Shown in pieces: positions 2,691-53,739 of a stretch of 64,000 bases of DNA. Numbering within the stretch: position 1 is the stretch's first letter; the number at the start of each line of letters is the position of its first letter. The position numbers and the translations under genes were made by a program. Source of the DNA: Escherichia phage 4MG; sequence record NC_022968.1, one strand, 5' to 3'. The notes beneath the pieces are model-generated. The model saw only the letters and a list, made by a program, of their open reading frames with translations. It searched no databases and had not been told where the DNA came from.

Positions 2691-3285
2691 ACCGCTAAAT
2701 ATCGGTATTGATGTTGACCTGACTTTTGTCGATTCAGGGTCCCCTTGGATTCTATGGATGGAACAGGTGTATGGTGTGAGTGCTGACTACAAGCTTCCAC
2801 CACCAAACCCACAAGGGAAACTCTACTACAACGTTTCCAAGTATTTTCCACCTGCAAAGGTAAATCAGGTTCCACCATACGAGTTCTGGGAAGACCCATA
2901 CCTCTATGACAAACTGAAGCCTCTGCCTGGTGCAGTTGAAGCAGTAGCGGCTTGGGCCGAAGCTGGACACTTCAACCAGTTTGTGTCTTACTGTAAGAAA
3001 GGCCACTTCTCGTCTAAGGTGCGATTCCTGAAACGTGAAACGGAAGAGTTTTTCAGTATCGAGCCAGGCTCAGGCCACGGGTTCTATGCAACGAAAAACA
3101 AAGCTGGTATCAAACTCGATGTCATCATTGATGACCGCAACGAGTTCCTGAATCAGTTCGGTCCTGAAGTGATCAAGATTAAGTTCAAGACACCTTACGA
3201 TCAGTCCGAAGAACTTCGTGTCTCGATTGACCTTGAGACCGATAACTGGGACGACATCCGGAAGTTTGTTCTGGACATTGCATAA
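2683..3285 (+). CDS. HAD-superfamily phosphatase, probable 5'-(deoxy)nucleotidase
   Basis: N-terminal IGIDVDLTF = HAD motif I DxDxT; start trimmed to ATG with GGAG RBS, overlapping the kinase stop. Confidence 0.5.
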   Translation: MRKPLNIGIDVDLTFVDSGSPWILWMEQVYGVSADYKLPPPNPQGKLYYNVSKYFPPAKVNQVPPYEFWEDPYLYDKLKPLPGAVEAVAAWAEAGHFNQFVSYCKKGHFSSKVRFLKRETEEFFSIEPGSGHGFYATKNKAGIKLDVIIDDRNEFLNQFGPEVIKIKFKTPYDQSEELRVSIDLETDNWDDIRKFVLDIA

Positions 3286-30903: not shown

Positions 30904-31332
30904 ATGATAAAACATTGCCACAATTGCAGTGCCTGTTGTGAAGTTATCGCTATAGACAACATCACACACGAAGACTTCCACGAAAAGATCAGGACCGGAA
31001 GAATATCCGCTATCCACGGGGAGATGATGAAACCAATCTCCAGGGATGAGGCCTACAAACGGAATCCTCTTGTTGTTACAGGTCGTGAGGAAGTTGGTAA
31101 AGGAACAAAACACTTCACCAGCTACTTTACCTGCACAAAGCTGAAAGACAACAAGTGCTCAATGTACGAGGATCGCCCGTACATGTGCAGCGGGTATCCG
31201 TTCTATGACCGGGAGCCTGTTGACACACAATCCCACGCTTCTCTGTGCAAGACACAGCTACGCAGGAAGGACACCCCGTACTCACCAACATGTACGTATG
31301 TCCCAACACTAATCGCGGTCAGAAATATCTAA
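30904..31332 (+). CDS. Cys-cluster protein (YkgJ-like CxxCxxCC)
   Basis: CHNCSACC near N-terminus plus further conserved Cys residues. Confidence 0.45.
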   Translation: MIKHCHNCSACCEVIAIDNITHEDFHEKIRTGRISAIHGEMMKPISRDEAYKRNPLVVTGREEVGKGTKHFTSYFTCTKLKDNKCSMYEDRPYMCSGYPFYDREPVDTQSHASLCKTQLRRKDTPYSPTCTYVPTLIAVRNI

Positions 31333-31356
31333 CCCACACAATAATGGAGCTTAAAG

Positions 31357-31914
31357 GTGACTAAGAAAAGAACAGAACTCAAGTTGTATAGACTAGTTTT
31401 CATGCTGGACCATATCAAAGAGTGCGATGTTGATGAGACTGGGTATTTGATATATCCAACAACAGACAATAAGTTGTACGACATATACATACTTGCTGAA
31501 AATAAAGAAAGTGTCATATTCAGGGCGGGAAGCTCCATAGCGGATCGCCAATCCTATTTTGGGATTGGTAATTTTTGGGGTGATGTAGAGGTCCTGAAAG
31601 TGGAAGAGATCCCCAGTGAAGACTATAAGGAATATATCATCACCGACACCCCTTTTGAAGGGGGTGGATTAAAGGTCTGGTGTTCAGGACCTGGTTATGA
31701 AAAGAGTAAATGGGAAGAGCTATGCGATGTCAAAGAAGGTACTAATATGCTCCGTGTATCAGACCTCAATGCTCACGCCGGGTGTGGTGCAGTACCTGCC
31801 AAAACGATAGAGGCTGCGCTTGAGAGATACAGGCTAGAAAGGGCAGAGCAAGAGCGCAGACACAAGGAGCGGGAGGAACGGAAGCTCAAGAGGCAGGCAA
31901 AGAAAGTAAAGTAA
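31357..31914 (+). CDS. hypothetical protein
   Basis: Lys/Arg/Glu-rich C-terminus; followed by a terminator. Confidence 0.5.
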   Translation: MTKKRTELKLYRLVFMLDHIKECDVDETGYLIYPTTDNKLYDIYILAENKESVIFRAGSSIADRQSYFGIGNFWGDVEVLKVEEIPSEDYKEYIITDTPFEGGGLKVWCSGPGYEKSKWEELCDVKEGTNMLRVSDLNAHAGCGAVPAKTIEAALERYRLERAEQERRHKEREERKLKRQAKKVK

Positions 31915-31925
31915 CACACAACAAG

Positions 31926-31952
31926 GGAGCCTGAAGAGGCTCCTTTTCTTTT
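31926..31952 (+). terminator. rho-independent terminator
   Basis: GGAGCC-TGAAGA-GGCTCC hairpin followed by TTTTCTTTT. Confidence 0.8.
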
Positions 31953-31977
31953 ATCTAAAGTGGCACATCAATTTCCC

Positions 31978-32006
31978 TTGACCTGAAGTGTCCCGTCGAT
32001 TATACT
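31978..32006 (+). promoter_or_regulatory. sigma70-type promoter
   Basis: TTGACC - 17 nt - TATACT, then GAGGAG RBS and ATG at 32037. Confidence 0.7.
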
Positions 32007-32036
32007 CCATCTATCAATTACACGAGGAGAAATTTT

Positions 32037-32150
32037 ATGACTGGACTTGAATTTTTAGTGCTAAGTGCGTGGGTGTGCTTCATGCTGTTCGGAAGCATTG
32101 GCCTGCTTCTGTGGGTATCTGTTGGTCCAGTGGCTAAGAAGGACGAATGA
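32037..32150 (+). CDS. small membrane protein (37 aa)
   Basis: Below track cutoff; strong promoter and RBS; hydrophobic. Confidence 0.4.
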   Translation: MTGLEFLVLSAWVCFMLFGSIGLLLWVSVGPVAKKDE

Positions 32151-32326
32151 TGGAACTGATTATCTTGTGGGGACTGCTGATCCTCTGTGTTGTCCTGATA
32201 GTGCTTGCTATCTGCGCCATCTTCAGCGATGACGATGACGACACGCCTTCCTCCGGCTCAGGCACTGTTGATACCGCTATGCTGATCACCACACAACAGG
32301 CTATGGTTGTCACCATGATTTTATAA
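32150..32326 (+). CDS. small membrane protein (58 aa)
   Basis: TGATG overlap; hydrophobic N-terminus, acidic DDDDD tract. Confidence 0.4.
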   Translation: MELIILWGLLILCVVLIVLAICAIFSDDDDDTPSSGSGTVDTAMLITTQQAMVVTMIL

Positions 32327-32338
32327 GGAGAACACAAC

Positions 32339-32566
32339 ATGTTTATATTCAGCAAAGAAGTGGTCAACACCCTTCTGAAAGAGGCCCACCAGGAATTAAC
32401 AAGGGTTGAGGATGCCCTGCTTGCACTTCACGACAGGGGGTACGGAATGTGCTCTGAAGAGTTCGTTTCCCTGATGGAGTATCGCAGACTGACAAAGAAT
32501 TCCATTGAAGATCTGGAGAAGAAGTTCAAAAGACTTGGGCTGATTGAGGAGATCCTGAAGAAATGA
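32339..32566 (+). CDS. hypothetical protein
   Basis: RBS TAAGGAGAACACAAC. Confidence 0.5.
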   Translation: MFIFSKEVVNTLLKEAHQELTRVEDALLALHDRGYGMCSEEFVSLMEYRRLTKNSIEDLEKKFKRLGLIEEILKK

Positions 32567-32802
32567 AAGAGCACGAGTTCAAAATACGTTTCGACAAAGC
32601 CACAGGTGAGTGGCGTGTATGGGTGAAGGTTCCGTTCCTGTTCTTCTGGACCTGCTGGCAGGTTGTTTTCAAAACCCAGAATGGCATATACGGAAATCCG
32701 TTCTTTGATAGCGAAAGAGACTGCGAGAAAGGCATCGAGAAGTGGAAGCTGGAAAACGCACCGGACTATGAGCGTTACAACACAACCCACCGCAAACTCT
32801 AA
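32563..32802 (+). CDS. hypothetical protein
   Basis: ATGA overlap. Confidence 0.45.
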   Translation: MKEHEFKIRFDKATGEWRVWVKVPFLFFWTCWQVVFKTQNGIYGNPFFDSERDCEKGIEKWKLENAPDYERYNTTHRKL

Positions 32803-32811
32803 GGAGAACAC

Positions 32812-33099
32812 ATGGCTTTCCACAAGGTTGTAAAAGCGCCTGCGAAACGGGCGCATATAAAGAATTACCCACACAAGAAGTCTGAAGCGAGAGACCGAAG
32901 AGTGAAGTGGTTATGGGACTATACAAAATCACTTCTTGGGGTTATCCTCGTAAACAGCGGCTATCATAAGTTTCACTTCTACGAACAATGGAGTGCTGTG
33001 AAAAAAGAGCTTAAAGAACTCGATGCTTACGATGAGCGAAACACCTGGCTCATTATCTCAGATGTTAAGTGGGAGCACAACAGATTTTATCGGTGGTGA
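32812..33099 (+). CDS. hypothetical protein
   Basis: RBS TAAGGAGAACAC; last gene before the non-coding region. Confidence 0.5.
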   Translation: MAFHKVVKAPAKRAHIKNYPHKKSEARDRRVKWLWDYTKSLLGVILVNSGYHKFHFYEQWSAVKKELKELDAYDERNTWLIISDVKWEHNRFYRW

Positions 33100-33112
33100 C
33101 CACACAAAAGGG

Positions 33113-33141
33113 TTGACGTAAACTGTCAGCCCTGTTATAGT
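33113..33141 (+). promoter_or_regulatory. sigma70-type promoter with no ORF downstream
   Basis: TTGACG - 17 nt - TATAGT directly after the last plus-strand gene; no RBS or ORF follows. Confidence 0.55.
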
Positions 33142-34805
33142 CATTATACGCCACATCTCCTGAAGCGGGAGGATACAATCACCAGACCTGCGTGAAAGGT
33201 TGTACACCCTGTTAACATTCTGTCATGTCGATAAAACACCATTTCATAAACATATACCCCACAACATGTCGATGCTATAAACATGTCTGAAGTGACCCAG
33301 CAAATTAGCCGGGGACTAATCGCCTTGCGATATACCCACCCCTCCCCCGCCCGGAGGGAAACGTAAACAGGCCCCTCTCTTTGTGTTTTCTGGCACGAAA
33401 ATATCCTGAAGAGGCAGGGCCTCGAAGACAGGTGTTTCTGGGCGCAATCTCTATGTCTGATGTGTTAGACGGACAATCACAGCCCCTCCGGGTTGTCAAG
33501 GATCTTTACAAAATATCTGAGAGGTCTGACCACGAGACCCTATCGAGTTTTTGGCACGATGATTGCATGATGATTACGTGGCGCAACTAATGATTACAAG
33601 TGCAACTATTAGCAATGTGACAGTTTACACCTGTTACAGCACGATTTGCTCTTGACTTGCTTATATTTGTGTGAATGAGCCTATTTAACATAATACACGT
33701 TATGCGAACCACAGATCACCGGGAGACAGGCCATATAGTCACATATGTTATCATTGCATCAGTGAACCATACCACAAGGCAACCAATAGCCTGCTACATG
33801 TTACCACCACGACAGTTTCACGCTGTTATTATTCATTTTGTGGGGTGTTTTGTCGATGAGAATACAAATGATAATCATTCTGAATACGATTTCGATTTCA
33901 GTTTCGAAATGAAAACCATTCTCAAATGGAAAATATTTTGTAAATCTGCCATAAAAAGCTTGACACAGAGGGAAAAATGTGTTTAGCATTTAAGCCTATC
34001 TTGAGCATCCAACCGCAATGATAATCATTAACGTTAAGCCTTGCTACGCCTGGCTTTAATAGACTTTTCCTATCAATAAAAAGCTTGACAGTTTACACCT
34101 TTTCATGCTCAAGAAAACCGCTTTTCATCGGGCATCTAGCCCGGTTTACAACATGATTAATCATGATTTGTCAATCATTAAACATGATTAAACCGCTTTT
34201 GATCTTCATAACCTGGCGACACAATAACACGAGGGCGATCATGCGATAGCGTGATCGGTGTTATCGTGGCGAGGTTATAAAATACTTCAACTATGCAATA
34301 GTTGCATTATGAATTATTCATTGTTCTAGTCATCTTGTCTGTTAACGCTTAGGCGCTAACGAGCCACGATAACGCGAACGAAAACGATATTTATTATCGT
34401 TTGAGTTACCCTCGTGTTATTGTGTCGCTCGCTCCGCTCGCGCCACTCACCCCGATAACGCGAACGATATTTTTATTTGACAAAAGATGATTACTATGCT
34501 CAAAAAAGACAGTTCACACAAAGGGTTAGATGAGAAAAGTTATCATTTCAGGGCTTTTGCTTCGTATTCACTCAATTTGCATAAAAACACGGTGTTTATT
34601 CACTTGATAACCTGCGTTATCATTTTTGGGGTGTGAGTGAGTCAAAGGCGGGTAATGATACACGATTAAACGCAATATAACGCGTTTTGAGAGGGTTTAT
34701 CTGTTAGGCTTGCCGTTGTATGGCTTCAAAGAGATCTCTTTAAATTCACTTTTTTGCATAAAGACGGGTAAAGATTTAGTGTTTTGTTTGGGGTGTTGGT
34801 ATGAT

Positions 34806-34834
34806 ATGCAAAAAGCCGGGGATTATCCCGGCCT
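34806..34834 (-). terminator. rho-independent terminator (minus strand)
   Basis: Minus-strand hairpin GGCCGGGATAATCCCCGGC followed by TTTTTGCATAT, just after the stop of gene 34853-35062. Confidence 0.7.
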
Positions 34835-34852
34835 TACTTGGTGTGACTTTGA

Positions 34853-35062
34853 TCAGATAAACATTGCAGCATAATGATCGTAAAGGTCTTGCGCTTGTCT
34901 GGCAGGCCAGCGGCTTTCATCCACCGGGACACGTAGATCAATCGGGCGGCGATCTTTCAATCCGTTAACATGAAAAAATGTTTCACCTGTAAGCTGTACG
35001 ATCTCCAGTTTAACGAGGTTGTCAGAATCTTTTACGGTCTGCTGAATGAGAATAGTAGTCAT
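34853..35062 (-). CDS. hypothetical protein
   Basis: Trimmed ORF; minus-strand GTGGAG RBS. Confidence 0.45.
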   Translation of the reverse strand: MTTILIQQTVKDSDNLVKLEIVQLTGETFFHVNGLKDRRPIDLRVPVDESRWPARQAQDLYDHYAAMFI

Positions 35063-35068
35063 TTGCAA

Positions 35069-35434
35069 TTACTCCACAATTGTGATGGTTTGACCTGGTA
35101 ACAGGAAATTCCCGGTTTTATCGTCAAAAATTCCGGTTGCACTTGTTACGGTGACCGTTTCGCCTGATGTCACGATCATAACTTGGGATTCAGTTGGATA
35201 ATCAAAGGTGTAAAGGCGAGGTGTTAACGGCTTGCCGCTTTCTTTCGAATAGTTAACATCATAATCATAAACGGCTTGACATTTGATCGCTACCGTTTCG
35301 GCCTTGTAATAGTGGTTATCATAGCCATAGCCACGCATAAACGGCGCGGATATTTCCAGGACTTCACACAGCGAACCACGAAACAACATATCGCCTTTTT
35401 TCAGGTCTAAAAGGTTGATTTTCTTAAGATCCAT
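35069..35434 (-). CDS. hypothetical protein
   Basis: Leader hairpin plus AGAGGTAAACAAAATG. Confidence 0.5.
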   Translation of the reverse strand: MDLKKINLLDLKKGDMLFRGSLCEVLEISAPFMRGYGYDNHYYKAETVAIKCQAVYDYDVNYSKESGKPLTPRLYTFDYPTESQVMIVTSGETVTVTSATGIFDDKTGNFLLPGQTITIVE

Positions 35435-35457
35435 TTTGTTTACCTCTCAAAGTGTAA

Positions 35458-35474
35458 CGGGGCGACTAGCGCCC
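35458..35474. repeat. GC-rich leader hairpin (family member)
   Basis: GGGGCG-ACTAG-CGCCCC between two minus-strand genes, about 20 nt upstream of the start codon. Confidence 0.6.
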
Positions 35475-35484
35475 CCGATGATTA

Positions 35485-35862
35485 TTACTGATAAGCGGGA
35501 TCGTTGGTGATGTCGATCCAATGAGTTAAATCAATTTTGCCTTTTTCTTTCATTTTCTCGATCAGGCGGTCGGCTAATGTCTCAGAACGAACATAAACAT
35601 TCTCGCTAAAATCCTGGCCTGTTTCATCGTCGATCATTTCGCAATATTCGATTTTACCGATGAAAGCATGATTCAAGGCGTAAGTTTTACCAGTAAACCA
35701 GTTGTGTAAATGAATCTCGCATTTATAATCATCGCTACGGCCTTCAGTAGTCATAACGTCGATCAGATCACCTTTGAAAACTGAAAGATTCCACATGAGA
35801 TCTTTAGTTTTACCGCCAAAATCTTTAGTTTCTACGGTTGAAGCCAGGTTAATGATCGACAT
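35485..35862 (-). CDS. hypothetical protein
   Basis: First gene of a minus-strand unit; RBS AGAGGTAAATCA. Confidence 0.5.
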   Translation of the reverse strand: MSIINLASTVETKDFGGKTKDLMWNLSVFKGDLIDVMTTEGRSDDYKCEIHLHNWFTGKTYALNHAFIGKIEYCEMIDDETGQDFSENVYVRSETLADRLIEKMKEKGKIDLTHWIDITNDPAYQ

Positions 35863-35899
35863 TTGATTTACCTCTTAGTCTGTTTTGTTTGATTTCGTT

Positions 35900-35945
35900 T
35901 GTTTGCCCTACGAGATAAATATTACTATAGGGGGATCAGCACGTC
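35900..35945 (-). promoter_or_regulatory. sigma70-type promoter (minus strand), conserved family
   Basis: Minus-strand TTGACG - 17 nt - TAATAT followed by conserved CGTAGGGC. Confidence 0.5.
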
Positions 35946-36358
35946 AATAGCTCTTTACATAACTTTACACTATTCACTGTTTGCATCTTTATGCATCGCT
36001 ATGCAATTCATTTCATGGTGAAATTACTTTTTAGGCGTTTTTCCGTGTCAAGCTATTTTTATATAGCCTTTAAACGTCCTGTAACGCGTTTTAAGCGGTT
36101 TTGCGTCCAGGCTGTACCCTAGCCCGTTTTAACGGAGATCTCCCCATATTCACTATTTTGCATAGGATTTGAGGGTGTAGTGATAATCATTCTCATCGCC
36201 CAGCGATTAGCCCCCGGCTAACTATCTAAATGATAGTGATTCTCATTACCGGAATAACAGGCACCTCCGGTGGCTTTCCTCCGGTGTCCATCGTTGCCGC
36301 TTCCACAAAAGAATAACAAAAACCGGGACAGAAAACAAGCCCCGGAATTGTAAAGATT

Positions 36359-36676
36359 TTAGCGGATATTTATCCCGGCGGGTAGCCAGTAGCCAGAATA
36401 ATGATCATGAGGTGTGAACCCGTGGGACGGCTTTATATATGTAACTGATAACCATTCTCGATCATCCAGATAAAGCGCCTCATCTATTGCCACCACAAAA
36501 CACAATTCACCTTCACGATCTTTAACGGTTGCGATAGCGTGTTTTTCTATCGCCTTTTCAAGTGCAGCCAGGCCGCGCCGGAATTGTTCCGGGCGTGTGC
36601 GGTAACCTAAGTTATCCTCAGGGCAAAGTCTGTTTAAGGTAGCCCAGCTAACCGCAATCATTTTTTGAAGTGTCAT
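36359..36676 (-). CDS. hypothetical protein
   Basis: Trimmed to ATG with minus-strand AAGAGG RBS. Confidence 0.45.
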   Translation of the reverse strand: MTLQKMIAVSWATLNRLCPEDNLGYRTRPEQFRRGLAALEKAIEKHAIATVKDREGELCFVVAIDEALYLDDREWLSVTYIKPSHGFTPHDHYSGYWLPAGINIR

Positions 36677-36686
36677 TGTCTGCCTC

Positions 36687-37163
36687 TTATCTGTAACGGT
36701 GCATTGATTCACGATAGACCGATCCGCCGTCGAACTTCTCCGCACTTCTCAGGGCGTCCACTAGCTCGCACATTTTGCGGAGTACATACGAACAATGATC
36801 ATTAAAGTCAATGGCTTTTTTAATCATTTCCTCTTTACTCTCCCCATCAATAAAGACAAGTTGATCAAGGGCGTTATAGTGATCAAGCCAGGCGCGGATC
36901 GCGTCATGCTCCAGGGGGCGATCTGTCTGGCTAAAACTTGACAGGCCGAAAGATTCAAAAGTGTTTACATTGTCCATTAATTCATCATAAGCGGTTTCCC
37001 AGCTACTAGCCCAGAACTCAACCGCATCAGATTGAAAATCAGGATCATCAGGGTCAATAAAACAGATTGAAAAAAGTTGCAGGCCTTCACGCTTTGTTAA
37101 GGTATAGCGAGCACTATCAAGGGCGCGTGTTTTGGTGTCTTCTGGGGTGATTTCATATTTCAT
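36687..37163 (-). CDS. hypothetical protein (start uncertain)
   Basis: Track ORF trimmed to internal ATG. Confidence 0.4.
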   Translation of the reverse strand: MKYEITPEDTKTRALDSARYTLTKREGLQLFSICFIDPDDPDFQSDAVEFWASSWETAYDELMDNVNTFESFGLSSFSQTDRPLEHDAIRAWLDHYNALDQLVFIDGESKEEMIKKAIDFNDHCSYVLRKMCELVDALRSAEKFDGGSVYRESMHRYR

Positions 37164-45149: not shown

Positions 45150-45475
45150 TATCAGACAGAAGAGAAAACGCCACTCCACGGCGAAAAGGCGGGGCTAACG
45201 TACCGGGCGCGGGTGCCAGGTCGGAAGGTGGATCGCCGGTAGTTCGTCTGAATGACATTTGTAAAGATTTGTAAAGATGGTTGATCCTGGGGTTGGTTCT
45301 GCTATTATTATCACATAGCGGGAACATTGAAACCGGAGTACAAAACACCGGGGGTGCCTGTCATTCTGCAAATGATAATGATTATCATTCAACAAGCTAA
45401 ATGAGAATGCTTCTCATTCCGCATAAAAATTTATCTTGACATCGAGTGTGCTTGTGTGAGAAAATTATTGATCCC

Positions 45476-49912: not shown

Positions 49913-51332
49913 CTAAGTCAACAGCCCTCCCAAATGGTGGGTCGTACTTGGATTTGTTACGTCCACACAGCACCCACAACGTATCCCACTTCTTACCCCA
50001 GTCTTTTTTGCGTGAGGTAAGGTCTTCAATGTACCCATCAGTGAAGATTATCACATCTTTTGCATCAGGGATATTCTTTTCGATGTATTCAAAGGCAACA
50101 CCAGCGCGTGTACCACCTGTGGAAGTCACATTATAGTCCAGCATCTCCTTGATGTTATCCTGTGTGTACACTTTCACTTCCCCAACCATCGTAGACCAGC
50201 AGAAAAGTGTTACCCGGAAGCACTTATACAGGGTGCACAGGCCAATAATCTCATTGAATATCCTGGTCATGGTCTGTCTGCTGATAGAACCCGACACATC
50301 GAAGCATACAACGATGTCGATTGTCTCAGATTGCTTCCTTCCCGGAAGAATAATGCTCTGTTTGTGGGTGATTGCCCCATAATTACGCAGTACCTGGGTC
50401 ACCGAGCCAGACCTACGAGCGGGTTTACGGTACGAAAGGTGCGACCTCACACGAGAAACCATACGTTGTTTAATGATTTTCATGTAGTCAATGTGTGGTT
50501 TCCGCATTCTTGCAATCAATTCCCGCGCTTCTTTCGGCCCTTCACCCCCGGCAGCACTCATTGCAGCATCAATCAGCCCAGCAGACCACGCAAGATTCTC
50601 ATCTTTGGCGATTGGGCCGAGGCTTGGGTGCGGGTCTACATACCCAAGGATGTCACGCTCAGGGTCATAATCCCCGATATGTGTACCCATAGGGTTGCCA
50701 GTAACCGCTTTCCCATTGTAGATCATCTCGTAAATTTCTTCTGCTGTCTTGTTTTGGAATGCAAAATCACAATAGCAGTAGGCAAGGAATCCAAATTCTT
50801 TGTCTTTATTGAACTTAGTTTGCGCCCCCAGAGGGAAGAACTTCAGGGTTTTATTCCTTGGCCCCAAGTCTCCAGCCACCAAATCTGTGTTGATGTACTG
50901 ATCCGCTGCGATATTGTACATCTTGGAGTTGAAGCTTTTACCACGGGCCATATGGTCGTTGGTGATATGGCGTATTTCATGCATGAGAATAACCACCACT
51001 TCTTTTGGTGTTTTCTTGCGATAGAATACGTCTACATACGTCTTGTAATCATCCTTCTGTTGTTGTGTCATTGTTGGATGATTGTCAATACGATCAAACA
51101 CTTTCTTTTTGCGCTCTGCTGGCATACCCATAATGAACTCAGGGTTGTAATACAGATTACGATGGTCTGTTGCAGCCGTTGGCAACCAACGCCAGTCAGC
51201 GATGATCGGTAAAGAACTCAGCAAAGTTCCGTAAAATGGGCGATGTTGCAGCAATGCAATACGTGCTGACTGAATTAGTTTTAGCGCTTCATCTTGAAGC
51301 TTAGAGATCATCTCAGATTCATCTTTGTACAC
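49896..51332 (-). CDS. metallopeptidase-like / von Willebrand factor A domain protein (DUF2201-like architecture)
   Basis: HEIRH (HExxH) in N-terminal half; DVSGSI (MIDAS DxSxS) in C-terminal half; start set at GTG with GGAG RBS. Confidence 0.55.
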   Translation of the reverse strand: MYKDESEMISKLQDEALKLIQSARIALLQHRPFYGTLLSSLPIIADWRWLPTAATDHRNLYYNPEFIMGMPAERKKKVFDRIDNHPTMTQQQKDDYKTYVDVFYRKKTPKEVVVILMHEIRHITNDHMARGKSFNSKMYNIAADQYINTDLVAGDLGPRNKTLKFFPLGAQTKFNKDKEFGFLAYCYCDFAFQNKTAEEIYEMIYNGKAVTGNPMGTHIGDYDPERDILGYVDPHPSLGPIAKDENLAWSAGLIDAAMSAAGGEGPKEARELIARMRKPHIDYMKIIKQRMVSRVRSHLSYRKPARRSGSVTQVLRNYGAITHKQSIILPGRKQSETIDIVVCFDVSGSISRQTMTRIFNEIIGLCTLYKCFRVTLFCWSTMVGEVKVYTQDNIKEMLDYNVTSTGGTRAGVAFEYIEKNIPDAKDVIIFTDGYIEDLTSRKKDWGKKWDTLWVLCGRNKSKYDPPFGRAVDLDEHAK

Positions 51333-51344
51333 AGTTATCTCCAA

Positions 51345-51372
51345 ATAAAAAAGGCCATCTATATGATGGCCT
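51345..51372 (-). terminator. rho-independent terminator (minus strand)
   Basis: Minus-strand GGCCATCATATAGATGGCC followed by TTTTTTATTT. Confidence 0.65.
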
Positions 51373-51381
51373 GATTATAAT

Positions 51382-51645
51382 TCACTCTTCTACAGGATGC
51401 AAGAACTTTTGTGGTAAAAAGTGATCAAGCCCTTCTATTCTGAAACACCAGGCCAACTGAGCACCAGGAGCACCGGGGAAATGTGGGATAGCAAACAAGA
51501 CAATCCCATCAACTTTTCCAATTACGAGTCGCCCCATAGAGGTTGTTGATACCTTTTGACCGAACTTGATATCCGGAATAAAGCCTGCATCCAACATTTT
51601 CTTTTCAGGAGCCGACGCGGGTCGGCCCAGCATTTCTTCGTACAT
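51382..51645 (-). CDS. hypothetical protein
   Basis: TAATG overlap with upstream gene. Confidence 0.45.
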   Translation of the reverse strand: MYEEMLGRPASAPEKKMLDAGFIPDIKFGQKVSTTSMGRLVIGKVDGIVLFAIPHFPGAPGAQLAWCFRIEGLDHFLPQKFLHPVEE

Positions 51646-52577
51646 TACACCACCTTGTTGAGCATCGCAGCAATCTTAGGCAGGCCCATCTCTGTCTGAA
51701 TGATCAGTTGGGTCAGCGCCTTTTCCATTTTCTTCGACACAATGATGAAGTTGTCTTTAGCAAAACCAACTTTAAGGTCCATAATCAGGATCGCCTTTGG
51801 TTCACCAGACAGCTTCTCTCCGGTCAGAGAGCAGGTATTGCGAATATACTTCGCTTTGAACTGTGCATAGGTCACAGAAACGTTCATACCAGCGTCGGAG
51901 AATGTCTTGCAGTAGTTGGCGTAGGCCAGCGCTACAGCAACATCATCAGGCAGTTTTTGCTTCTCTTCCGCTGGTGCTGTAGTTTCTTCTGCAACCGGAG
52001 GCTGTTTATGGAAGTGCTGTTCAGCAAGTTCCATTGCGGAAGACGCGGTGCGCTCTTTAGGTTCCGGGTGACGTGGAAAATCTTCTGCAACAACAGGTTT
52101 TTCTACAACTTCTGAAGTATCTACTGGCATTTCTTTCTCCTCTTTTGGAATATATTTGGTTTTCAGTTTTTCCATGTGCTCTTTTGACATGTTGAGCATC
52201 ATTGCTTGTACGATTTCACGGTCAAGTGGCTCAATTATAGTGATTGCCGTCTTCTTGTCAACCAAACAATCTTTCAGTTCGTTAGCACGTTGAAGAACAA
52301 CACAGACGTTACCACGTACATAACCCTTCTTATCGTTGATACGCTCAACGGTTGGGTACAGCGGGTCTTTTTCACCATGCACAGAGCGCATACTGAAGTC
52401 CATATTGGTATAGTCACATTTACCCATACCAAGAAGCTTTTCACCCATCATGAACCAGTCATCAAGGGTCAGACTGAATTCCAGGCCACGTTTCTTTGTG
52501 CGTTCAACCTTTTTACGGTAACGTTCCTCTAGACTTTTGATCTCACTGGCGGTAAATTTCTTTTTCACATCAAACAT
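51645..52577 (-). CDS. hypothetical protein with degenerate HNH_3-like segment
   Basis: ERINDKKGYVRGNVCVVLQRANELK resembles the C-terminal half of HNH_3; minus-strand AAGGAG RBS. Confidence 0.45.
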   Translation of the reverse strand: MFDVKKKFTASEIKSLEERYRKKVERTKKRGLEFSLTLDDWFMMGEKLLGMGKCDYTNMDFSMRSVHGEKDPLYPTVERINDKKGYVRGNVCVVLQRANELKDCLVDKKTAITIIEPLDREIVQAMMLNMSKEHMEKLKTKYIPKEEKEMPVDTSEVVEKPVVAEDFPRHPEPKERTASSAMELAEQHFHKQPPVAEETTAPAEEKQKLPDDVAVALAYANYCKTFSDAGMNVSVTYAQFKAKYIRNTCSLTGEKLSGEPKAILIMDLKVGFAKDNFIIVSKKMEKALTQLIIQTEMGLPKIAAMLNKVV

Positions 52578-52647
52578 TTTCTACTCCTTGGGTTATTCCC
52601 GTTCTTGTTGGGAGAATTATCCTGGATTGTGTCCCCACTGTCAACAC

Positions 52648-52676
52648 TTGATTTCAAAATTTTTACAGTGTATGCT
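52648..52676 (+). promoter_or_regulatory. sigma70-type promoter
   Basis: TTGATT - 17 nt - TATGCT, then GAGGAA RBS and ATG at 52708. Confidence 0.55.
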
Positions 52677-52707
52677 TTCTATACATTCAGTAAGCAGAGG
52701 AATAAAA

Positions 52708-53739
52708 ATGAGTAAGTTTAACGTTGATGTGCGACCCGTGTCTGTCCCAAAAGTGACTGCGGATATAGACTGGAGCCTGTTGAAAGATGACCAAACAACC
52801 CGTGACATGCTGGAACAGCTACAGAGAGAAAGGGAGTATCGACAAATGGCAATGATAGGTATGTGGGAAAACCCACGAGCCAGTAAGGATGAGTTTATCT
52901 CCCGTTTGCAACCCAAGATGGTGGAGGATAATCCTTTCGTAGAACTGCTCAGAGAACTTGTTGATAGGGTTGATGTCAGAGATGGCCCATATTCATGGTT
53001 ATGGGGGACATATGAAGACCGCCGTGGTGGTATGGACAGACGCCAAATGGCAAGATTAGAAGTAGAAATAAGAGAAAGAAACCCTTCCTCAAGCCCTTTT
53101 GAGCGCGCGCCGGGTGAGGATGTATCACGGGGTAGTGTTATCGCTTCTATTCGTGGTCATGGTGATGGTGCAGCGCTTATTGATAGTCATAACTGGCGTT
53201 TGTCTTCACGCACAAGGAACTTTCTCTCTATCTTGAAGCCACTGATCCGGCAAATGGGCCGCTGTGAGCCTGACCTGGTGATAAAGGCAGATTTCAGAAG
53301 GTATAGTGCCAGTACATCGAGCTTTATGCAGCCGCGCTCTGATATCGACCTGCTGGGTATTTCTTTAACCATTGGCGACCTGCTTGTATATTGTGATTTC
53401 AGAGATCGTGATAATTTTGATGTACACTGCAATCACATTGGACACAGTGTTTTCCATTTGCGTGACCAAGGTGTAAGGGTGCAGAATGCTCGTGAGGCGA
53501 TGTTGATTTGCAATAAATATGAAACGCTCTTCACTTTTAAGTGGGACGAACGTCTGAGAAACATGATGGCAGGTGAATCTCCAACGGAAGATGAACTGCT
53601 AATGATGGAAATGGCTGGTTATAAAGATGAATTTTGGCTTGACAAGATAGATTACTTTGATACACTCAAGATCAAACCTTTTAACATGATGGAGCAATCA
53701 CGATGGTACGAACAAACAATTCCTCGATTCCAGTTTTAA
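52708..53739 (+). CDS. hypothetical protein
   Basis: 343 aa, trimmed start. Confidence 0.5.
   Translation: MSKFNVDVRPVSVPKVTADIDWSLLKDDQTTRDMLEQLQREREYRQMAMIGMWENPRASKDEFISRLQPKMVEDNPFVELLRELVDRVDVRDGPYSWLWGTYEDRRGGMDRRQMARLEVEIRERNPSSSPFERAPGEDVSRGSVIASIRGHGDGAALIDSHNWRLSSRTRNFLSILKPLIRQMGRCEPDLVIKADFRRYSASTSSFMQPRSDIDLLGISLTIGDLLVYCDFRDRDNFDVHCNHIGHSVFHLRDQGVRVQNAREAMLICNKYETLFTFKWDERLRNMMAGESPTEDELLMMEMAGYKDEFWLDKIDYFDTLKIKPFNMMEQSRWYEQTIPRFQF

Follow-up and report, generated by a model that had tools for sequence, protein, structure and literature searches.

A conserved non-coding gap in Escherichia phage 4MG probably holds the ends of the linear phage genome, with a predicted 516-bp direct terminal repeat

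A stretch of DNA from Escherichia phage 4MG (sequence record NC_022968.1; 64,000 nucleotides, referred to here as the window) was examined for the function of a 1.75-kb gap between genes, found at positions 33100-34852. Because the last open reading frame (ORF) on the plus strand ends at 33099 and the first ORF on the minus strand ends at 34853, the two gene blocks that flank this gap converge upon it. The closest records in sequence are those of Seunavirus and Mydovirus phages of Salmonella, Cronobacter, Enterobacter and Klebsiella, with Cronobacter phage GAP31 being nearest (91% identity), which identifies the window phage, by sequence, as a Seunavirus-like (rV5-like, Vequintavirinae) myophage. 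The portion of the window from 31000 to 37000 is, in addition, 100% identical to IMG/VR contig UViG 2595698946_000001 (148,567 bp). As detailed below, the gap most probably corresponds to the genome-end (concatemer-junction) region of a linear phage DNA that carries a direct terminal repeat (DTR) at 33468-33983.

The initial annotation, in which alignment with related phages was proposed as a check, described the gap as ORF-free. Such alignment, involving 17 Seunavirus and Mydovirus genomes, revealed the whole of the gap (33100-34852, assigned to neither strand) to be conserved, with the boundary motifs described below being retained; identity per 30 nucleotides (nt) ranged from 0.5 to 0.96 across 33110-34840, as opposed to about 0.3 in the flanking coding sequence. 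BLAST searches likewise matched the gap in PVP-SE1, KPP-1, Mydo and Ro1, with the neighbouring genes remaining mostly unmatched. Taken literally, the description of the gap as free of ORFs does not hold, since mechanically called ORFs of 30-103 amino acids (aa) are present, the longest lying at 33675-33986 (103 aa). In substance it stands, as no small ORF remains open in every one of the 18 relatives, the one of 103 aa is open in none of them, and comparison of the gap ORFs with PHROGs and Pfam returned no matches.

That the gap contains unannotated small protein genes or decayed genes is thus highly improbable. Apart from the mechanical ORFs themselves, such an explanation can draw on the up to nine 'hypothetical proteins' that several depositors using permissive gene callers have annotated in the gap of some records. 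Against this stand not only the lack of a commonly open frame and of a family match but also the pattern of conservation, which tracks helices and motifs rather than reading frames, and the curated annotations of PVP-SE1 (2.2 kb, between genes 179 and 180) and rV5 (2.6 kb, between genes 163 and 164), in which the corresponding gap is left empty, as it is in Hena1. In the paper describing rV5, this gap was marked 'non-coding' and the switch point of GC skew was placed there (Kropinski et al., 2013; PMC3606486).

The evidence that the gap holds the genome ends comes from relatives with recorded termini. In Klebsiella phage KPP-1, twofold coverage together with PhageTerm assigned a 514-bp DTR to positions 116,316-116,829 (PMC9862379), which in the KPP-1 record fall within the homologous gap, beginning with GACGGACA and ending with GTGTT. 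Klebsiella phage DP carries a 514-bp repeat_region that is identical at both ends of its record, while the record of Erwinia phage Hena1 includes 'direct terminal repeat 1/2', of 519 bp and again identical at both ends. In all three phages, the repeat sits between converging gene blocks and, when the DP and Hena1 junctions are set in the orientation of the window, the same order is seen, namely left genes, repeat, some 240-260 bp, a structured element and right genes. Moreover, the three DTRs begin with GACGGACA directly after ...TGTTA or ...TGCTA and end with ...TTGACA-N17-(G/A)TGTT just before TAGCA or TAACA, and these boundary motifs are invariant or nearly so across all 17 aligned genomes, including the window. 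Mapping the repeat boundaries of DP, KPP-1 and Hena1 at the conserved motifs therefore yields a predicted DTR at 33468-33983 in the window (516 bp; 39.7% G+C), sharing 68.6% identity with that of KPP-1 over 456 nt; other relatives matched over only parts of the repeat. A single copy is predicted for each junction in replicating DNA and a copy for each end of the virion DNA. Of the roles suggested in the initial annotation, it is accordingly that of a packaging site which gains support, given how the annotated or published DTRs of relatives map into the gap at motifs retained in the window.

More distant phages offer comparable arrangements. Escherichia phage Gotham, a Vequintavirus, was reported to have 459-bp terminal repeats (PMC7471380), and its record presents, in order, the annotated 459-bp repeat_region, about 1 kb of non-coding DNA, a terminator and minus-strand genes; the homologue of this DTR lies midway in the 2.6-kb non-coding gap of rV5. 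In the phi92-like Escherichia phage BME3, a DTR of 342 bp is found, the ends of the record being identical over 342 bp. As for that record (PP239276), its first 788 bp occur again near its end and its first 342 bp again at the very end, while the annotated 'DTR-L' contains Ns and is placed on the minus strand, such that the ends as deposited appear to be mis-assembled. Termini with short DTRs are of a known kind, having already been recorded in members of Mydovirus, Henunavirus and Vequintavirus. The window repeat shares with those of KPP-1, DP (514 bp), Hena1 (519 bp) and Gotham (459 bp) a position between converging gene blocks and a near-identical length, and with those of KPP-1, DP and Hena1 the boundary motifs (GACGGACA... 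and ...TTGACA-N-GTGTT). It differs in belonging to another genus-level group, the Seunavirus-like phages, and in being predicted where the others were measured. Gotham itself departs from the pattern in that its repeat starts with GGCGGACGGA and has no internal inverted pair of the sort described next.

At the left boundary, GATGTGTTA/GACGGACAAT (33459-33477, plus strand; the slash denotes the cut), cleavage would fall between 33467 and 33468. Here, TAGACGGACA is invariant in the 17 genomes; GACGGACA occurs twice in the 64-kb window. At the right boundary, ATAAAAAGCTTGACA-N17-TGTT/TAGCAT (33951-33990, plus strand), which is conserved and corresponds to the DTR ends of relatives, cleavage would fall between 33983 and 33984, thereby splitting a promoter-like site, with TTGACA on the repeat side of the cut and the -10-like TAGCAT beyond it. 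The direct word ATGTGTT(T)AG is common to both boundaries, and the DTR of Gotham ends with CTTGACAAAGAGGAGAAAAACTTGTC, directly before its cut. Within the repeat, a pair of 12-nt words that are 100% complementary is arranged almost symmetrically, with TTTACAAAATAT (33505-33516, plus strand; invariant in the alignment) starting 37 nt inside the left boundary and ATATTTTGTAAA (33933-33944, minus strand; conserved) ending 39 nt inward from the right boundary. DP and KPP-1 share these offsets with the window, and the symmetry suggests a protein held at a fixed distance from each cut.

A highly conserved block in the repeat interior (33867-33923, assigned to neither strand) consists of AATGATAATCATT ... 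TTTCGATTTCAGTTTCGAAA ... AATGAAAACCATT, in which the palindromic 13-mers AATGATAATCATT and AATGAAAACCATT flank a T/C-rich core (TTTCGATTTC...); relatives carry AATGAGAATCATT twice. Just outside the repeat (34001-34029), the alignment revealed TTGAGCAT, the inverse of ATGCTCAA, together with the second copy of AATGATAATCATT. The possibility that ATGCTCAA is a phage promoter word was considered and rejected, as the window's five other copies of it are intragenic and have no promoter context. The 13-mer AATGATAATCATT is identical to the core of the Escherichia coli Fur-box consensus, GATAATGATAATCATTATC. Relative to that consensus, the candidate sites at 33867-33879 and 34017-34029 score 14 and 15 of 19, with better matches being found elsewhere in the window, namely two overlapping sites scoring 16/19 at 45368-45392 and a cluster at 36176-36250. 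Fur-box-like words also occur inside the terminal repeats of relatives and of BME3. When secondary structure inside the repeat was addressed by sliding-window consensus folding, no conserved structure was detected and the strand bias of individual windows was mixed.

Several points weigh against the assignment of the genome ends to this gap. No annotated repeats were found in the Seunavirus records of the collection searched, the inverted pair is only weakly kept in Hena1 and is absent from Gotham, and the conserved, covarying palindromes of the region could instead be binding sites for dimeric proteins. In older papers, moreover, rV5, PVP-SE1 and PhiTE were called circularly permuted (PMC3606486, PMC3475682), and in a recent paper PhageTerm returned a headful call for one Vequintavirus (PMC13211470). 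Together with the arbitrary start points of many GenBank records deposited for this group, these reports would fit headful packaging from a pac site in the gap, producing circularly permuted DNA without a fixed 516-bp repeat. Such packaging is nonetheless improbable, seeing that defined repeats of 459-519 bp, with the same boundary motifs, are found at the corresponding site in four relatives from three genera, that these motifs are kept in the window, and that the older statements rest on low-coverage Sanger or 454 assemblies that closed into circles. Two further records were considered as evidence of a terminus and set aside, since the start of the SalP219 record reflects merely a 127-bp assembler overlap and the ends of the KP12 record do not repeat.

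Should the gap indeed be the genome-end region, as is favoured here, the following course of events can be proposed. Terminase would cut at ...TGTTA/GACGGACA and at ...TTGACA-N17-TGTT/TAGCA, such that packaged DNA would start at 33468, run rightward via 34000-34852, continue round the genome and through 33100-33467, and end at 33983. The single copy of the repeat at the junction would be duplicated during packaging, as occurs in T7-type phages, where the junction repeat must be duplicated via strand displacement or primed synthesis and where, in T7, a DNA hairpin intermediate was seen (PMC4281155). The gene blocks would be transcribed outward to the ends, with transcription being stopped by a hairpin at 33109-33133 on the plus strand and by a terminator at 34808-34837 on the minus strand. 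The conserved non-coding DNA that remains, including a junction-crossing promoter (33113-33141), the TTGACA at the inner edge of the repeat, the inverted pair and the palindromes, would then serve as a cis-acting signal. As to the genes next to the ends, most relatives (KPP-1, EC152, SPLA5a, Hena1 and Gotham) have a conserved ORF of 264 nt as the first gene within the left end; its counterpart in the window (34853-35068) is the first minus-strand ORF, which has a listed length of 216 nt and begins with TTG. Gene content near the ends is otherwise highly mosaic.

The promoter reported at 33113-33141 in the initial annotation, TTGACG-N17-TATAGT, was found as described. It is a predicted sigma-70-like promoter on the plus strand, with 10 of 12 consensus matches and a TG extended -10, reading rightward across the repeat, and TTGAC(G/C)...TGnTAT..T is retained by all relatives for which this stretch is covered. 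The broader claim that the gap is packed with promoter-like elements fared less well. Such sites are present, but the sigma-70-like sites number 8, as compared to 6.2 +/- 3.0 expected from shuffled sequences, and because this count does not exceed expectation, it is conservation rather than the raw number of motifs that constitutes the signal. Some 10-25 nt past the predicted transcription start lies a small hairpin (33155-33172, plus strand; z = -1.4, weak alone), the stem of which, CUCC/GGAG in the window, is GUGC/GCAC in relatives, two pairs being flipped.

Overlapping the promoter and found just after the last plus-strand gene, the 10-bp hairpin at 33109-33133 (plus strand; -15.1 kcal/mol, z = -3.3) admits one G.U pair on the plus strand only and is kept in most relatives, with three to five lacking the 5' GGG. 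This hairpin may end transcription of the left block, although the T-run that follows it is weak. On the minus strand, the site at 34808-34837 combines a G+C-rich hairpin with a U-run, as expected of a rho-independent terminator of the right block (GGCCGGG-AUAAUC-CCCGGC, then UUUUUG; -16 kcal/mol, z = -3.6). In FENT2 and AV124, compensatory substitutions preserve its stem (GCCAGG/CCTGGC), and the annotations of PVP-SE1, Mydo and Gotham place a terminator at the corresponding position. A simple terminator scanner reported no terminators in the region.

About 230 bp from the repeat and inside the left end, the gap contains a 213-nt four-helix, cloverleaf-like element (34216-34428, plus strand). 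This element comprises a closing helix, P1 (34216-34235 paired with 34409-34428), the hairpin P2 (34236-34257), the helix P3 (34260-34270 paired with 34363-34373) and the hairpin P4 (34382-34402). P3, the invariant base of which is GTTATCGTGGC/GCCACGATAAC, encloses a variable tip of several hairpins, while the strands joining the helices, GCGAACGA and GAGTTA, are likewise invariant. The minimum free energy of the element was calculated as -101.6 kcal/mol with RNA parameters and -60.5 kcal/mol with DNA parameters (z of about -11), a value equalled by 0 of 200 shuffled sequences. In 21 genomes, P1 is a perfect Watson-Crick helix of 18-22 bp, pairing having been retained through exchanges of A:T to T:A, G:C to A:T, A:T to G:C and G:C to T:A. 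Even in Henunavirus, where the sequence of P1 is wholly different and AGCCACCTATAAACGCTGATAG pairs with CTATCAGCGTTTATAGGTGGCT, the helix is still perfect. Across a 17-sequence alignment, 96.5% of the cells are paired, the unpaired P1 cells representing a one-column register shift of two Henunavirus rows that are perfect in their own register, and 14 of the 45 pairs change on both sides. None of 500 shuffles reached the level of pairing of the element, and slid controls were 24-56% paired.

The most conserved block of the gap adjoins this element. At 34429-34476 (plus strand; identity 0.89-0.96), the C-rich 27-mer TCGCTCGCTCCGCTCGCGCCACTCACC is followed by the second copy of CGATAACGCGAACGA (34453-34467) and a T-run. 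The first copy of CGATAACGCGAACGA (34367-34381, plus strand), which comprises the 3' arm of P3 and the junction between P3 and P4, is invariant in relatives. Arrangements resembling the element yet lacking sequence similarity to it are seen in Gotham and rV5, where an 18-bp closing stem lies 199 nt after the repeat and is followed by the analogous GCGACTCCGTCGCGCCA, and in BME3, where a 15-bp closing stem lies 282 nt after its repeat. In each of these look-alikes, the plus strand folds better.

Homologues of the element were not found in plasmids or E. coli genomes, the two bacterial matches to a 19-mer being at chance level, and of the 62 matches obtained in a metagenome scan, 4 were true homologues, adding no new diversity. 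Given its 20-bp inverted repeat, the element was considered as an invertible segment, an explanation rejected on finding the same internal orientation in all 21 genomes. Three IMG/VR or metagenome contigs end inside or right at the element, which may reflect assembly or sequencing trouble at a long inverted repeat or else the storage of records in chunks. Relatives also contain sporadic insertions of 53-68 nt (e.g., PVP-SE1 at about 3093-3158, LNA4, Mydo and FENT2) that are absent from the window, at sites aligned to window positions 34040, 34217 and 34757 as well as inside P3 and P4. Most of the inserted sequences fold as two to three adjacent short hairpins, with no sequence being common to different cassettes, and their distribution is discordant with phylogeny, the same cassette being present in some Seunavirus and some Mydovirus genomes. 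As such, they resemble small hairpin cassettes that are mobile or recombine.

Whether one or several non-coding RNAs are encoded in the gap, for instance a transcript from the promoter at 33113 or from the repeat-edge TTGACA that carries the 213-nt element and acts in trans, in regulation or anti-defence, was considered in light of this structure. The cluster of non-coding RNAs envisaged in the initial annotation is reduced to a single strongly covarying, plus-strand-biased structure at 34216-34428, with the Rfam scan proposed there remaining without a match: none was obtained at the gathering threshold of Rfam 15 for the whole 64 kb, an E-value search of the region gave best scores of 16-22 bits against cut-offs of 43-84, and ARAGORN detected no tRNA or tmRNA. 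A search of the literature for a Vequintavirinae transcriptome yielded nothing usable. An RNA would nevertheless agree with the conserved extended -10 promoter and the covarying 5' hairpin that follows it, with the z of -11 of the element and with its strand preference, the plus-strand fold being more stable than the minus-strand fold in 21 of 21 genomes (mean, -11 kcal/mol with RNA parameters and -3.9 kcal/mol with DNA parameters). Six sequences, moreover, show G.U pairs at the base of P4, in the plus-strand sense only, and PhiTE, an rV5-like phage, expresses a functional non-coding RNA, pseudo-ToxI (PMC3475682).

Other properties of the element speak against a trans-acting RNA. Besides being unmatched in Rfam at either threshold, it has no sigma-70-spaced promoter within about 130 nt upstream and no terminator directly after it. 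P1 is without any G.U pair over 18-22 bp in the 21 genomes, and a helix that is exclusively Watson-Crick is more typical of a DNA inverted repeat. The distance between the element and the DTR is, furthermore, roughly fixed across genera, which points to action in cis. An encoded non-coding RNA is hence a possible but doubtful explanation of the gap. The best guess offered here is instead that the element is a cis-acting folded plus strand, either as a transcript or as transient single-stranded DNA, that takes part in end replication, repeat duplication or packaging. It may tentatively be proposed, at rather less than even odds, that the element and its sequence-unrelated look-alikes near the terminal repeats of rV5/Gotham and BME3 belong to a previously undescribed class of cis-acting folded nucleic acids required for end replication, repeat duplication or the start of packaging in large myophages with short DTRs. 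No description of the conservation of the boundary motifs, of the symmetric inverted pair or of the covarying four-helix element was found in the papers searched.

An origin of replication, another of the roles initially suggested, found no specific support. In such a scheme, which is compatible with the gap also being a terminus, the gap or the element with its A+T-rich repeated flanks would be an origin primed by a promoter-driven transcript or by a folded strand, as in T7 phiOL/phiOR or ColE1. Replication-associated promoters adjoin both ends of T7. In the window, conserved promoter-like sites read into the element, which has a strong conserved structure, and close by are an A+T-rich stretch of repeats (34140-34215), two direct copies and one inverted partial copy of CGATAACGCGAACGA, and GATAAC, found 7 times in the 1.75 kb as compared to 57 times in the 64 kb. 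Set against these features are the absence of an adjacent initiator gene, the lack of enrichment of the DnaA-box-like GTTYACAY in the window as a whole, the lack of similarity to plasmid or E. coli sequences, and cumulative GC skew, which peaks at 33-35 kb, as at a terminus, rather than bottoming out there, the minimum lying near 51-52 kb. Since skew follows the direction of transcription in these phages (PMC3606486), the peak is weak evidence; a maximum at this position fits forks and transcription running toward the ends and not away from an origin. An origin in the gap is, on balance, unlikely. The cumulative skew minimum, where skew turns from negative to positive at about 51000-53000, would by the same logic be a candidate internal origin or point of divergent transcription.

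The remaining repeats and palindromes listed in the initial annotation were likewise all found, within a few bases of where they had first been placed. ATAAAAAGCTTGACA occurs at 33951 and 34076 (given as about 33950 and 34078) and GACAGTTTACACCT at 33619 and 34087 (given as about 33620 and 34091), with a third, inverted copy of the latter at 33118-33127. The AATGATAATCATT palindromes begin at 33867 and 34017, the palindrome CAACTATGCAATAGTTG spans 34288-34304, about 6 nt farther right than first reported, and the 15-mer direct repeat CGATAACGCGAACGA begins at 34367, where 34362 had been given, and at 34453.

Other conserved elements lie between the repeat and the right gene block. The second copy of ATAAAAAGCTTGACA is followed by GTTTACACC and the conserved CATGCTCAAG (34076-34113, plus strand), at a spacing that is unfit for sigma-70 and is altered by an 11-nt indel in some relatives, while TTGACA-N12-TATGCTCAAAAA (34477-34505, plus strand) is a conserved pair with a spacing too short for sigma-70. 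As such, the TTGACA words at 34085 and 34477 were not accepted as standard sigma-70 promoters: only 12-14 nt separate them from the conserved (Y)ATGCT, and in one case this spacer is indel-variable. The palindrome ATGATT-TGTC-AATCAT (34163-34178, assigned to neither strand) is found where the sequence is A+T-rich and contains three repeats of the CATGATTAA type; its core, TTTGTCAA, is invariant and its arms co-vary (ATGGTT/AACCAT, CTATT/AATAA). Similarly, the arms of TGATAAC-CTGC-GTTATCA, which is followed by TTTTT (34605-34627, plus strand; z = -1.7) and may be a weak terminator-like hairpin or a dimer binding site, co-vary in Mydovirus (TAATAAC/GTTATTA). Lastly, GGGGTGT, conserved in relatives, occurs on the plus strand at 33842, 34628 and 34790 (3 times in the gap and 10 times in the window), in each case in the gap directly after a T-rich run (TTTTGTGGGGTGT, TTTTTGGGGTGT and TTTGTTTGGGGTGT).

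Among better-studied systems, the junction of T7, in which the terminal repeat is flanked by the promoters phiOR and phiOL, is comparable in organization. A short DTR, promoters that read across or out of the repeat and the need for repeat duplication are features that it shares with the predicted junction in the window, as may be a DNA hairpin near the repeat (PMC4281155). The two differ in that they have no sequence similarity, the window repeat is three times longer, the window promoters are of the host type rather than of the phage RNA polymerase type, the flanking genes of the window point outward to both ends, and the element of the window, lying about 230 bp from the repeat, is no simple palindrome but a four-helix fold of 213 nt. 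Further leads are provided by the injection stop signal of phage T5, with its dense direct and inverted repeats near the genome end, and by ssi sequences and ColE1 RNA II, in which a folded single strand acts in cis in replication; to these, the window shows no sequence or Rfam similarity, it has no plasmid homologue, and two-step injection is not known in this group of phages. The 'non-coding' box of rV5 and the 2.2-kb gap of PVP-SE1 are homologous or analogous to the region considered here, having earlier been given no function in genomes regarded as circularly permuted.

The reading favoured here, namely that of a genome-end region, would give the 'non-coding box' long noticed in rV5-like phages a concrete identity as the physical genome ends, with cut sites predicted at the level of the base and a predicted repeat of 516 bp. 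It would likewise correct the usual description of this gap and of the genomes that contain it, in which start points are arbitrary and, in some, up to nine spurious 'hypothetical proteins' are listed. Known ends would fix orientation, length and annotation in a group that is used therapeutically and that includes relatives of PVP-SE1, and would matter for engineering and for the risk of transduction, which depends on whether packaging is of the fixed-end or headful kind. Finally, the boundary motifs, the symmetric inverted pair and the covarying element would offer handles on the unsolved matter of how phages with short DTRs recognize the junction and duplicate the repeat.

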